From a virus, in IMG/VR virus record IMGVR_UViG_3300045988_058566, positions 122,600 to 186,599 of that record: a stretch of 64,000 bases of DNA. One strand, given 5' to 3'. Both the position numbers and the translations under genes were made by a program. The notes under the pieces were generated by a model. That model was not told where the DNA came from. It made no database searches and saw only the letters and a program-made list of their open reading frames with translations. Positions within the stretch are counted from its first letter, which is position 1, and each line of letters begins with the position of its first letter. This document shows, in pieces, positions 43,300 through 63,718 of the stretch.

Positions 43300-43812
43300 A
43301 TGGCTACAGTAATCGTAAACAATGACGCTAATGTACAGGTTGCAAATGGTGGTGAGAATATGCGCTTACGCAATTCTATGTCCATCGACAACTTGTTGGT
43401 GGCATTCCCAGACAGTCTCCCTACAGACTTTATGCTCAAATTCCATAATGATTTGCGCTATCAGCGCAATAGAACAGAGTGGAGCGATAAGTGCTATTGC
43501 GGTTTGGTTCCATTCTACAACGGAGTTGAGCATATAGAGTTTGCTATGTTGCAATGGGATTTACTTGTCGCTGATATTGCAACATTCAATGCAAAAGGCG
43601 AGTTCGCTGGGTTTGTTACACCTAACGATGAACTTCACACCTATGCTCGTTCCACAGCTTCTGCCGACATCACGATAGAAGCTTGGATGCAGGGCATTGC
43701 AAAACACTTCAATGATAATGCAAAGGATTACAAGTTCACCAAGTTGAGCTATCTCTGCAAATATGAGGAGCGACTCTATACTCGTGTTCTACTTGGCATT
43801 ATCAAGAAGTAA
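43300..43812 (+). CDS. hypothetical early protein
   Basis: Intact 170-aa ORF; higher GC; terminator follows. Confidence 0.6.
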   Translation: MATVIVNNDANVQVANGGENMRLRNSMSIDNLLVAFPDSLPTDFMLKFHNDLRYQRNRTEWSDKCYCGLVPFYNGVEHIEFAMLQWDLLVADIATFNAKGEFAGFVTPNDELHTYARSTASADITIEAWMQGIAKHFNDNAKDYKFTKLSYLCKYEERLYTRVLLGIIKK

Positions 43813-43820
43813 ACTCTTAA

Positions 43821-43848
43821 AGAGGGATTTCCACTTGGATTTCCCTCT
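43821..43848 (+). terminator. terminator hairpin
   Basis: agaggga..tcca/tgga..tccctct followed by ttctttatt. Confidence 0.55.
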
Positions 43849-43894
43849 TTCTTTATTATTAATTTTATTATTAACTCTTTAATATTTTTACATT

Positions 43895-44233
43895 ATGATT
43901 ACCAACATTATTAAGAATTTGATTAAGGATATTCCTTCAGTTGCTAACTCCTCTATTCGTCTTATGAACGAAAATAGAGATAACGGTCAGGTCACCTTTG
44001 TAACTACTGATGCAAGCGCAGTTGCTATTGTGCTAACTAATGTACCAAAAGGTGCTCCGAAATCTATCTCTGCTTATAAAAAGCAGATGATAGCAGATTT
44101 TCTCTATTTAGTTGCTGTTGAGGGCGACCATATGCGTACCTCAGAAGGAAAGGGGTACACTCTTGCAGATATGGCAAAAGAGATTGACCTTATCATCTCA
44201 CAAGATGTTGTCTTGTGGGATATGAAAGGATAA
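43895..44233 (+). CDS. hypothetical early protein
   Basis: Intact 112-aa ORF preceded by TAACTCTTTAAT. Confidence 0.55.
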   Translation: MITNIIKNLIKDIPSVANSSIRLMNENRDNGQVTFVTTDASAVAIVLTNVPKGAPKSISAYKKQMIADFLYLVAVEGDHMRTSEGKGYTLADMAKEIDLIISQDVVLWDMKG

Positions 44234-44277
44234 TCTTCACGACCCAAGCAAGTCGTTAAACTGCTTATTAACATTAT

Positions 44278-44288
44278 TAACACATTAA
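44278..44288 (+). promoter_or_regulatory. TAAC-N4-TAAC-type motif upstream of an ATG
   Basis: TAACACATTAA, 12 nt before ATG 44301. Confidence 0.45.
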
Positions 44289-44300
44289 ATCAAACAAATT

Positions 44301-60878: not shown

Positions 60879-61489
60879 GTGAAGTATTTACTTATAATGG
60901 TAAAACTTATCAGGTGGTAAAATCTATTGTATGTACACATTGTGCATTTAGGGGTAAACTATGTGGTCTTATTGAACCATCTGCTGGTAATTGTATGCCT
61001 AGTAACAGATCAGATAAAACTAGTGTAATTTTTAAAGAAATAAATAATATGGAAATAAAAAATAATCAATTAACTATTGATATTCCTGAAGGAATGGAAA
61101 TAGATTTAGAAAATAGTGATTTAGCTAAAGGGATTATCAAATTTAGGAATAAATGGTTAACGATAGCAGAAATTGTTGCGTGTGAATATCTTAATTCATC
61201 TATTATTGTAAGTACATCAACTCGTAAGAAAATAATTGCAATAAGTAATCTTATGGATATTGCTAAATACTTTAATGGTAATTGGAAATATAAAGTTAAT
61301 AGCGGTGAACGTGGCTATATGATAGCTTATGATAATAGTATAAAAAAACCTTATTATAAAGTTAATACTATTTATCCCACTACTGATGTATATTATGGTA
61401 ATCCAATATTTAAAAATGAAGCTGATGCACAATATGTAATAGATAATCCTAATTTTAGAGATATTCTTGATGCTATTTATAAAAATTAA
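60863..61489 (+). CDS. hypothetical early protein
   Basis: Intact 208-aa ORF. Confidence 0.55.
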   Translation: MERKIGEVFTYNGKTYQVVKSIVCTHCAFRGKLCGLIEPSAGNCMPSNRSDKTSVIFKEINNMEIKNNQLTIDIPEGMEIDLENSDLAKGIIKFRNKWLTIAEIVACEYLNSSIIVSTSTRKKIIAISNLMDIAKYFNGNWKYKVNSGERGYMIAYDNSIKKPYYKVNTIYPTTDVYYGNPIFKNEADAQYVIDNPNFRDILDAIYKN

Positions 61490-61491
61490 TT

Positions 61492-61884
61492 ATGGAAACA
61501 TTACAAGAATTAAAGAGTAAATATAAGAAACTACAAGAAGAAAGTAATAATCTTTATAGCAGAATTAGAGCATTAGAAAAGAGAGATGCAATTTCTAAGT
61601 TTACTGTTGGTGATTGTTACTTAGATACAAGATGGAATGATTTAATAAAAATTGTTTCAATAAAAGATAATTACATATATTATATATGTTTAGGTGAAGC
61701 TTGTATCACTAGAGATAACTCTTATATATATGATATTGAAGATTGGGAGAAGATTACTTCTCACCAATTTAAAGATGCTTATCTTGCCACAATGAAGGAT
61801 ATTCGAGATCCAGACTTTGAAGAAGGACCAAAGTCTAATTGGAATAGAGTTTTAAACTCTATTATAAGTAGTCTTAATAAATAA
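61492..61884 (+). CDS. hypothetical early protein
   Basis: Intact 130-aa ORF. Confidence 0.55.
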   Translation: METLQELKSKYKKLQEESNNLYSRIRALEKRDAISKFTVGDCYLDTRWNDLIKIVSIKDNYIYYICLGEACITRDNSYIYDIEDWEKITSHQFKDAYLATMKDIRDPDFEEGPKSNWNRVLNSIISSLNK

Positions 61885-61891
61885 AAATAAT

Positions 61892-62851
61892 ATGGAAACA
61901 AATATTAATATAGCAAAAATCCTGAAAAATGTTCCAATAGATACTAAATTATATTCACCTCTATTTGGATATGTATTTCTTAAATATATAGGAGAAATGT
62001 TTATAACTGTAGGACATCATGGTACAACGGCTAATTTCTATCATAATGGTAGACTATATGATTATGAGGGAACAGAACCAATGTTATTCCCTTCAAAGGA
62101 TATGCGTGATTGGTCTAAGTTTGCTTGGAAAAAGGGTGATGTACTAGTAAGCAATGATGGCAGTATAGAGGTTATCTTTGATGAATGGTACGATGATACT
62201 TACACAAATTTCTATGGTAAACATTATTTAGATAGTGAGAATGAAAATAATATCAAGTATTTTGAAGGATTTGTATGTACGACCGAAAGCTATTTTTTTG
62301 AATCTAAAGATGCCATTCAGATCTACATCAATACCATAGAGGAACGTTTGGGTGGCAAGCTCAATCGTGAAACTTTGGAGATTGAAAAGCAGCTTGAGTT
62401 CAAGGATGGGGATATAGTGGTATATGGAAAATCAGTAGCAATATGCCGAAAGATTTATAATCATACCCTTTGTTTCTATGTTTCTCTAAATGAAATGTTT
62501 GGATTATTGTTTGACGATGAGGTGGAATCATCTGAAGAGTATAGATTTGCTACAGAAGAAGAGAAGCAGCAACTCTTTGACACTTTAGCAAAAGAAGGTA
62601 AGACTTGGGATGCAGAAAAGAAAGAAATTGTGGACTTGCCTAAGAAGTGCGAGTTCAAGCCATTTGATAAAGTGTTGGGGAGAAATGATAAAGATGATGT
62701 ATGGGAAGCTGAACTCTTTTCTTATTATAGAGAAGAATCACAATATCCTTTTCGTTGTATCGGATTTAGTCGTAAGTATTGTATCCCTTACAACGAAGAA
62801 ACAGCACATCTACTAGGAACGACTGATGATTGGGAAGGAAGTGAGGGGTGA
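61892..62851 (+). CDS. hypothetical early protein
   Basis: Intact 319-aa ORF. Confidence 0.6.
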   Translation: METNINIAKILKNVPIDTKLYSPLFGYVFLKYIGEMFITVGHHGTTANFYHNGRLYDYEGTEPMLFPSKDMRDWSKFAWKKGDVLVSNDGSIEVIFDEWYDDTYTNFYGKHYLDSENENNIKYFEGFVCTTESYFFESKDAIQIYINTIEERLGGKLNRETLEIEKQLEFKDGDIVVYGKSVAICRKIYNHTLCFYVSLNEMFGLLFDDEVESSEEYRFATEEEKQQLFDTLAKEGKTWDAEKKEIVDLPKKCEFKPFDKVLGRNDKDDVWEAELFSYYREESQYPFRCIGFSRKYCIPYNEETAHLLGTTDDWEGSEG

Positions 62852-62957
62852 GAAAATGGTTACTGAATCAGATTGATGAGATTGGATGCTATTGTAATGA
62901 GCATCCATACGATAAATATACGTATAACATCTATTTAATAATGTGTAAATTAGTTGG

Positions 62958-63332
62958 TTGGTTATGATAAATAATAAAAAAATAGAAGAAGCCAAAGATA
63001 ATATCTTTAATAAACACTTCTTAAAGAATAATGAGGGAATGATATGTATAGACCATATATCAGAACCTATATATTTAGATTATCAGATTAAACAAGCTAT
63101 TGAACTAGGTGCTCACTGGGCTATAAATGAGTTTTTGAAGAATTTATGGCATCCTGCTAGTGAAGAGCCAAAGTTTGGTAAAGGAAGATTGTTAGTCTTG
63201 ATAAACGGAGGTGTCAGTATTCTAAATGTAGGTTTTGTTTTAGACCAATTACGCAACCTACATAATGTATATGGCATCGAAGGTTGGCTATACTTGAATG
63301 ATTTACTGCCAAAGGAAGGAGGTGAGCAATGA
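62958..63332 (+). CDS. hypothetical early protein
   Basis: Intact 124-aa ORF. Confidence 0.5.
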   Translation: MVMINNKKIEEAKDNIFNKHFLKNNEGMICIDHISEPIYLDYQIKQAIELGAHWAINEFLKNLWHPASEEPKFGKGRLLVLINGGVSILNVGFVLDQLRNLHNVYGIEGWLYLNDLLPKEGGEQ

Positions 63333-63718
63333 AAGAGTACATAGATGGTGACTTGGTAAGATATACATCTTTATATAAAGAACCTATTGCAGAAATCTGT
63401 GAGGTTCGTGAAACATCTTATCTTATAAGATTTATGAATGGGAATTTTGCAAAAGTCACAAGTAAAGAAATCAAACCCATTCCTATTACAACGGATATTC
63501 TAGAAAAGAATGGGTGGAAAACTCAAAACGGGTCGTACTATTATTTAAATGTGGCAAAAGGTTTTATTTCTTATGTTGGGATAGACTTTAAGCATAAATC
63601 AGATAAAGGTCAGCTATATGTAGAGATTGATGGAAATAATATAGCGGAGATACAATATTGCCACGAACTCAATCACCTCTTCTTTGGTATGGGTATTAAA
63701 AACGAAATGGAGGTGTAG
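63329..63718 (+). CDS. hypothetical early protein (TAG stop)
   Basis: Intact 129-aa ORF; ATGA overlap. Confidence 0.55.
   Translation: MKEYIDGDLVRYTSLYKEPIAEICEVRETSYLIRFMNGNFAKVTSKEIKPIPITTDILEKNGWKTQNGSYYYLNVAKGFISYVGIDFKHKSDKGQLYVEIDGNNIAEIQYCHELNHLFFGMGIKNEMEV

Follow-up and report, generated by a model that had tools for sequence, protein, structure and literature searches.

Two readings of TAG in a putative, distantly crAss-like gut phage, and second stops without a TAG-specific excess

Standard-code early genes combined with recoded late genes were reportedly described by Ivanova and colleagues in 2014. The present study concerns a 64,000-nucleotide (nt) stretch of viral DNA, positions 122,600 to 186,599 of the IMG/VR record IMGVR_UViG_3300045988_058566 (hereafter the window), in which leftward late genes read TAG as a sense codon and ten small genes of a rightward block end at TAG. 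The role of these terminal TAG codons, and of the in-frame TAA or TGA codons lying downstream of them (back-up stops), was analysed.

Stop-codon reassignment in crAss-like phages was found to be confined to late genes (Yutin 2021, PMC7886860), and a model was proposed in which early genes keep the standard code and late genes are recoded with the help of suppressor tRNAs (Borges 2021, 10.1101/2021.08.26.457843). Mgcod (Pfennig, Lomsadze and Borodovsky, 10.1101/2022.06.29.495998) introduced the notion of 'dual-coded' early blocks, whose small stop shifts were regarded as isoforms under a 'soft switch'. Proteomics of two crAss-like phages supported such blocks, as their standard-code regions gave no peptide evidence of TAG recoding (Peters 2022, PMC9523058), and in Zeta crAss-like phages carrying Sup-CTA tRNAs, the rare TAG stops were remarked to be 'followed shortly' by another stop (PMC12386605).

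AT predominates in the window (GC 27-37%), whose GC skew flips its sign near 40-44 kb. Relatives of its large terminase (TerL) in IMG/VR are 97% identical and lie on contigs of 106-225 kb, among which lengths of 176-193 kb recur, while identity to Crassvirales TerL is 25-28% over about 80% of the length. The window therefore appears to derive from a distantly crAss-like phage of the human gut with a genome of roughly 185 kb. About 40 related IMG/VR contigs were compared as ±10-kb loci, which were fetched via three rightward proteins, namely a 319-aa protein (39 loci), a 169-aa protein (14 close loci) and an alignment of the LytTR protein (25 loci, two subclades). Loci L092-L105 are referred to as close relatives, and L003-L041 and L001/L002 as distant ones.

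Partition of TAG between the rightward block and the late genes

Between position 159 and about 37 kb on the minus strand, the standard code gives short fragments of open reading frames (ORFs), and continuous long genes result when TAG is read as sense. The 28 recoded genes contain 335 in-frame TAGs in 11,866 codons (2.82%), most of these TAGs within 159..37042, including 17 in TerL, 40 in the portal and three in the major head protein genes; the maximum, 66, is reached in a protein of 2124 aa, and the window holds two proteins of about 2100 aa. Among the putative Gln codons of the late genes, TAG ranks first with 335 occurrences, more than CAA (204) and CAG (51) combined. TAG recoding was found in 48 of 48 TerL loci of at least 6 kb.

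The rightward block follows a different rule. A first-pass annotation, made from the sequence alone, had proposed that, from 43.3 kb on, plus-strand genes can all be read without passing through a TAG, and that two codes coexist in the genome, with TAG as a true terminator rightward and a sense codon in late genes. Both proposals were borne out, as no TAG-dependent ORF was found and none of the 4765 codons of the block is an internal TAG, compared with 134 expected at the late-block rate of 2.82%, although this count is partly circular because the rightward ORFs were delimited by standard stops. In a non-circular check, in which TAG was read as sense, each TAG fell within the last 1-29 codons of its ORF, and the product of the tail fractions was 8e-15. 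The gaps of the block hide no TAG-containing gene, as only ORFs of 40-86 aa occur there, several of them over tRNAs. Proteins cover 70% of the block, or 76% when RNA genes are counted as well. The 41 ORFs end with TAG in 10, TAA in 25-26 and TGA in 5-6 cases, and the TAG share of rightward stops (window, 24%; clade, 18%) is above that of TGA in both. Searches of about 30 rightward proteins against PHROGs and Pfam returned only the LytTR domain and three PHROGs of no known function.

The comparison of orthologues bears directly on whether these TAGs terminate. In close as well as distant relatives, orthologues reaching the C-terminus nearly always terminate at the same residue, where TAG, TAA and TGA interchange. 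In detail, all four orthologue contexts of the 188-aa gene (45572-46138; 94-96% aa identity) have TAA directly after the same last residue (TAAGTAAGCTAAGATG vs. TAGTAAGTTAAGATG in the window), and the window TAG-TAA at 46136 looks like a one-base deletion in the TAAGTAAG motif of the relatives. TAA likewise occupies the same residue in 11 of 11 contexts of the 72-aa gene (56321-56539; 83-94% aa identity), and is used in five of six contexts of the 130-aa gene (59377-59769), at the window position or one to a few codons beyond it. Mixed usage was observed for the 132-aa gene (50327-50725), whose orthologues share the end residue with TAG in seven contexts and TAA in three, and for the 153-aa gene (60417-60878), where the stop is TAA or TAG. 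The 69-aa gene at 48936-49145 retained TAG in seven contexts, with the next stop at the fifth codon in five and at the 30th in two of them. The most conserved TAG stop is that of the 129-aa gene (63329-63718), present in 16 of 17 contexts with tails of 2-57 codons. Opposite swaps occur too: the window genes starting at 43300, 49966, 57361, 59117 and 61892 end with TAA or TGA and have TAG-ending relatives. Altogether, 25 gene families of the clade contain both TAG and non-TAG stops.

The first-pass annotation had named homologs continuing through the TAG as a finding that would overturn its proposal; no orthologue was found to extend into a longer conserved protein. The following gene mostly begins a few bases from the TAG, and the base after the stop is T in seven of the ten cases, as for the other stops of the block, compared with 27% T after the sense TAGs of late genes (P=0.006). 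Because orthologues end at the same residue while the stop types swap, TAG in the rightward block is, by the comparative sequence evidence, a genuine terminator.

The code appears to be assigned to single genes. Plus-strand genes at 39462-41172 are recoded, therefore the assignment goes gene by gene and not by strand. Within or beside the late block, four minus-strand genes are TAG-free, 8980-9432, 17866-18309, 38424-39338 and 37241-37846, for which the chances of zero TAG at the late-block rate are 0.014, 0.015, 0.0002 and 0.003, respectively. As the exonuclease and GroES-like genes among the TAG-free ones are interspersed with recoded genes, these also indicate a gene-by-gene partition. In most TerL loci, the sole standard-code ORF of at least 300 aa measures 304 aa, and is presumably the orthologue of the PD-(D/E)XK exonuclease of the window. 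Some relatives carry genes with 12-20 in-frame TAGs inserted in the rightward block (L111:11502-12563, and also L110, L115, L116, L118 and L119), which again argues that recoding proceeds gene by gene and not block by block. One insert of the L111 type, located some 1.1 kb past the LytTR gene, encodes 353 aa; judged by eye, it seems to contain a SYGCVNLP motif resembling those of L,D-transpeptidases as well as a peptidoglycan-binding repeat, and it is without counterpart in the window.

These observations also bear on a historical explanation, by which the rightward block would be a fast-turnover mosaic taken from standard-code phages too recently to be recoded. The block indeed diverges much faster than the late genes, as on contig 061496 the 319-aa protein is 67% identical compared with 96% for TerL, and known families are absent for nearly all of its genes. 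However, the TAG-free state is common to two subclades that share just 53% identity in LytTR, the conserved leftward 304-aa exonuclease is TAG-free as well, and the single recoded insertions inside the rightward block of relatives indicate that location is no bar to recoding. The historical explanation is thus considered highly improbable.

Table 1. Coordinates of the features described in this study (window positions, except for the second tRNA(CUA), which is given by locus).
Feature	Coordinates	Strand	Remarks
Rightward standard-code-compatible block	43300..63888	+	41 small ORFs and tRNA array; continues past the window edge
188-aa gene	45572..46138	+	ends TAG-TAA at 46136
69-aa gene	48936..49145	+	ends TAG (49143); TAA is the fifth codon after
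132-aa gene	50327..50725	+	ends TAG-TTA-TGA at 50723
109-aa gene	50882..51211	+	ends TAG-TAA at 51209
105-aa gene	56016..56333	+	ends TAG-TAT-TAC-AGG-TAA (56331); TAA inside the overlapping next gene
72-aa gene	56321..56539	+	ends TAG (56537); readthrough tail of 10 residues
69-aa gene, tandem paralogue of 56321-56539	56541..56750	+	ends TAG (56748); readthrough tail of 29 residues
130-aa gene	59377..59769	+	ends TAG-TAG-AAA-TAA at 59767
153-aa gene	60417..60878	+	ends TAG (60876); 14-residue tail overlaps the start of 60863-61489; matches phrog_13450 (function unknown)
129-aa gene	63329..63718	+	ends TAG (63716); 9-residue tail; next gene 2 nt on
TAG-recoded late block	159..37042	-	major head protein, portal, large terminase; up to 66 TAGs per gene
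TAG-free leftward genes	37241..39338	-	GroES-like (201 aa), 85-aa protein, 304-aa PD-(D/E)XK exonuclease
Three recoded plus-strand genes	39462..41172	+	need TAG readthrough; 16, 4 and 3 in-frame TAGs
First leftward genes	42415-42813, 41949-42269, 41462-41773	-	132, 106 and 103 aa; flank the suppressor tRNA; TAG-free, all end TAA
Suppressor tRNA(CUA)	42295..42367	-	second element of the leftward unit; ARAGORN and Rfam, 63.5 bits against the Rfam tRNA model
Divergent intergenic region	42814..43299		between leftward and rightward units; ORF orientation and GC-skew change
tRNA array	51819..55926	+	at least 13 tRNAs; none with a CUA anticodon
LytTR DNA-binding protein	54423-54782	+	in a block whose ORFs nearly all lack known families
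Second tRNA(CUA), sister subclade	L156:9192-9262; likewise in L157-L161, L052, L055, L062	+	co-oriented with the rightward block

Distance of the back-up stops

The ten TAG stops listed by the first-pass annotation (46136, 49143, 50723, 51209, 56331, 56537, 56748, 59767, 60876 and 63716) and the stops downstream of them were all located as described. In gene order, the next in-frame TAA or TGA is the 1st, 5th, 2nd, 1st, 4th, 10th, 29th, 3rd, 14th and 9th codon after the TAG, which includes the longer extensions that had been named for 56537, 56748 and 60876. The same annotation had read the tandem stops as a protection of early genes against late readthrough, and suggested a comparison with a shuffled expectation.

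For this comparison, the 150 nt downstream of each TAG stop were shuffled at the mononucleotide level. The ten TAG tails were nominally shorter than the shuffles, with a median of 4.5 vs. 11.1 codons (P=0.04), and six of them measured five codons or fewer, compared with 2.95 expected (P=0.04). However, the genes of the block terminated by TAA or TGA, which are the more suitable control, deviated equally, as a further TAA or TGA followed within five codons in 13 of 30 (P=0.025 against a random-position rate of 0.255), and the direct comparison of the two classes in the window (6/10 vs. 13/30 within five codons) was not significant (Mann-Whitney P=0.10, Fisher P 0.26-0.49). The short distances as such were therefore confirmed, while their being specific for TAG was not.

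The comparison was extended to 705 unique gene ends in 220 families from confirmed TAG-recoded relatives of two subclades. At the family level, 64 TAG classes and 181 other classes had the same median of 10 codons; a stop was the very next codon in 7.8% vs. 7.2%, within two codons in 17.2% vs. 15.5%, and within five codons in 31% vs. 34% (all Fisher P ≥0.44). Among the 25 families with both stop types, the tail of the TAG members was shorter in eight, longer in 12 and equal in five. Significance obtained with unique gene ends (P=0.0002 and P=0.03) did not hold in the family-level and within-family tests and was discounted as pseudo-replication; the signal was traced to few multi-copy families (50327, 50882, 56016 and 59117). 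A pool of all loci with a homologue of the 319-aa protein (1229 unique gene ends) gave no TAG effect either; it was left unused, as most of its contigs (GC 0.36-0.43, no tRNA array) were not confirmed to be TAG-recoded.

If the nearby TAA and TGA codons had been selected as fail-safe terminators, which would prevent C-terminal extension once the suppressor is active, an excess specific for TAG genes would be anticipated. The short window tails relative to the shuffles, the published remark on closely trailed TAG stops in Zeta crAss-like phages (PMC12386605), and the unique ends of the close relatives, in which a stop is the very next codon after 19% of TAG vs. 6% of other stops, are in line with such selection. 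It is at odds with the same excess over the shuffles in TAA/TGA genes, and with the lack of a TAG effect in the window, between families and within families. Moreover, second stops remain where the first stop is TAA: the orthologues of the 109-aa gene (50882-51211) end with TAG-TAA or TAA-TAA, the second TAA being present with either first stop, and those of the 105-aa gene (56016-56333) have TAG or TAA first and the TAA four codons on in all. Also, tails of 10-29 residues are left in three of the ten window genes, and up to 57 codons are reached in the 63329 family. Selected fail-safe stops are hence regarded as very unlikely, and the reading of the tandem stops as protection was not sustained. 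We conclude that the back-up stops arise incidentally, from AT-rich spacers and from neighbouring genes read in another frame.

Suppressor tRNA, code switch and neighbouring elements

The position of the suppressor tRNA(CUA) in the leftward unit is maintained in relatives across the clade. It shares 47 of 73 positions with the phage tRNA-Gln(UUG), and Gln leads the residues that face TAG in an alignment of 14 TerL sequences (Q 144, E 111, K 110), so reassignment of TAG to Gln is likely. At 95% suppression per codon, only 3% of the 66-TAG protein would reach full length, therefore late suppression must be very efficient, and is presumably near complete. The first leftward genes (41462..42813) had no family matches, and an Rfam search of 41900-43400 (E-value ≤1) returned tRNA only, with no theta or hepatitis delta virus (HDV)-like ribozyme by the suppressor tRNA. 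In the divergent intergenic region, nine consecutive C residues and about 200 nt of locally raised GC content lie just upstream of the first rightward gene (42960-43295); the region had no Rfam match.

The following course is proposed for the infection. The rightward block would be translated correctly by an unmodified standard-code host, in which TAG would be a normal stop beside TAA and TGA and RF1 would terminate at UAG. The leftward unit would open with TAG-free genes and the tRNA(CUA), most likely charged with Gln, and the late genes would become producible as the suppressor tRNA accumulates. After the switch, the TAG-ending rightward genes would gain tails of at most 1-29 residues, kept short by AT-rich spacers and out-of-frame neighbours that provide a TAA or TGA about every 10 codons. 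As TAG stops are neither avoided nor buffered, readthrough of the rightward genes seems cheap, either because their mRNAs would be silent once the suppressor is active, or because short tails would be harmless.

Efficient late suppression at the same time implies readthrough on whichever rightward mRNAs are still in translation by then. TAG-ending genes could then switch from a short early product to a Gln-extended late one, tolerated or even used; this equals the 'dual-coded' proposal of Mgcod (10.1101/2022.06.29.495998) and agrees with 31 of 41 genes having the same product in both codes and with seven of the ten TAG genes shifting their stop by less than 30 nt. However, the extensions are not conserved, which makes a function of the tails unlikely: TAA or TGA replaces TAG at the same codon, tails range from 1 to 57 codons within a family, and several run into the start of the next gene. 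The standard-code regions of two crAss-like phages also yielded no readthrough peptides (PMC9523058). Such a soft switch is possible, but on the whole doubtful. It seems quite probable that the phage reads TAG in two ways, with standard-code rightward genes and suppressor-dependent late genes, and that the short tails come from the AT-rich context and not from selection.

Several points weigh against this explanation. The unique gene ends of the close relatives, which are non-independent, have a median distance of 5 codons after TAG vs. 9.5 after other stops (P=0.03), and the larger set of 705 unique gene ends shows a weak trend to nearer second stops (P=0.09), so there may be a weak selective effect on back-up stops. 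The partition is not strictly blockwise, given the recoded plus-strand genes at 39462-41172 and those inside the rightward block of some relatives. The rightward genes are presumed 'early' from their orientation, the tRNA array among them and the preponderance of small ORFs of no known family. Finally, among the window proteins searched (64 kb), there was no release factor, no glutaminyl-tRNA synthetase and no RF1 inhibitor, and hence no gene product by which RF1 would be outcompeted.

In a sister subclade, whose TerL is about 73% identical, a second tRNA(CUA) is placed amid the opening genes of the rightward block, in their orientation. At the equivalent position, locus L084 has a tRNA-Gln(CUG); an origin of the second tRNA(CUA) as a one-base anticodon mutant of this tRNA was rejected, as many sequence differences accompany the shared position. 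TAG ends one of 22 rightward ORFs in L156, compared with 10 of 41 in the window (P=0.08), and 9 of 75 unique gene ends in the sister subclade, several of these outside the rightward block. The TAG share of rightward stops is thus about 5-12% in the sister subclade vs. 18-24% in the window subclade, where the suppressor tRNA(CUA) is leftward only. A tentative and rather unlikely interpretation is that the clade handles late readthrough by purging TAG stops from units co-transcribed with a suppressor, and not by adding back-up stops. If true, the frequency of TAG stops would be a sequence-only readout of when a unit is translated relative to the code switch.

The tRNA array of the rightward block includes unusual members on the plus strand, namely one with an AUA anticodon (55561-55633), a tRNA-Lys(UUU) whose D-arm contains an insertion (52769-52856) and a tRNA-Trp of 91 nt (52662-52752). 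In the second subclade, the array contains an 85-nt tRNA with the ochre-suppressor-like anticodon UUA (L020:3641-3725, L021:3301-3385, L001:25788-25872). A weak match to an HDV-like ribozyme (55021-55075, plus strand; 23.4 bits at a gathering score of 44) directly follows the 3′ end of tRNA-Leu(UAA) (54936-55021), and 'theta' ribozymes of gut phages were reported at such positions 3′ of tRNAs (PMC10879173). After this match, a 105-nt tRNA-like stretch with a poor score extends over 55106-55210. Two RAGATH-1 hammerhead ribozymes, at 46600-46705 and 47637-47721 on the plus strand (68.1 and 62 bits, over the Rfam gathering score), have the same orientation and lie on either side of the 111-aa gene at 46738-47073.

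An AT-rich non-coding element of about 170 nt (53662-53833, plus strand) is located past the tRNA array, with an odd tRNA-like stretch before it (53549-53661). Identity of the element is 93-99% throughout the clade, including members in which the neighbouring LytTR protein has just 53% identity, and still reaches 88% in the unrelated but likewise TAG-recoded Prevotella Lak megaphages, which hints at Prevotella or other Bacteroidales as hosts. An exact 31-mer taken from the element occurs in 24 IMG/VR contigs, and those cross-checked belong to the clade; the 31-mer had no match in GTDB genomes, and the element no Rfam family.

Paralogous genes of about 145 aa stand in tandem on the plus strand (56921-58682, 60029-60412 and 60417-60878). 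They begin with ATGTGTT(GG/TT), encoding Met-Cys-Trp or Met-Cys-Phe, 2-4 nt past the preceding stop, and the extent of their expansion differs among relatives.

Comparison with described recoded phages

The combination of a standard-code block with recoded late genes is a known architecture, which the first-pass annotation recognised correctly; its only new idea, selected back-up stops, was not supported. The window adds one more case to the published model of late-gene expression being gated by stop-codon recoding. For annotation, the rightward block and the scattered TAG-free leftward genes need code 11, and the late genes code 15. The negative result is informative as well, since the clade gives no sign of early genes buffered by fail-safe stops, and rightward TAG stops are not avoided (18-24%). 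The arrangements TAG-TAA, TAG-TTA-TGA and TAG-TAG-AAA-TAA do resemble fail-safe tandem stop codons, but the excess over controls that defines the latter is absent here.

Compared with the dual-coded blocks of Mgcod, the rightward block gives the same or nearly the same proteins in codes 11 and 15, and the suppressor tRNA adjoins recoded genes. The equivalence limit of <30 nt holds for 38 of 41 genes, 31 of them identical and seven TAG genes with shifts of 3-27 nt, while three TAG genes exceed it with shifts of 30-87 nt (tails of 10, 14 and 29 codons). Where Mgcod regards the two products as isoforms, the orthologues here favour TAG as the functional end and not two equally valid forms.

The Zeta crAss-like phages (145-192 kb; Yutin 2021, PMC7886860; PMC12386605) are compatible in size with the 176-193 kb contigs of the relatives, and share with the window clade tRNA arrays and recoding of TAG or TGA. 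By size and by the 25-28% identity of its TerL to Crassvirales TerL, the phage may belong to this group; an RNA polymerase or other signature gene was not noticed in the window, where no search aimed at one was made. More generally, code-15 gut phages (crAss-like Beta, Delta and Zeta, Lak and others) have in-frame TAGs only in structural and late genes, like the phage of the window, and both have a Sup-tRNA(CUA), a standard-code-compatible block, an AT-rich genome and the human gut as habitat. Nothing fundamental differs between them, and the details particular to the window are that TAG is the majority putative Gln codon in the late genes and that TAG stops are undepleted (24%) in the rightward block.

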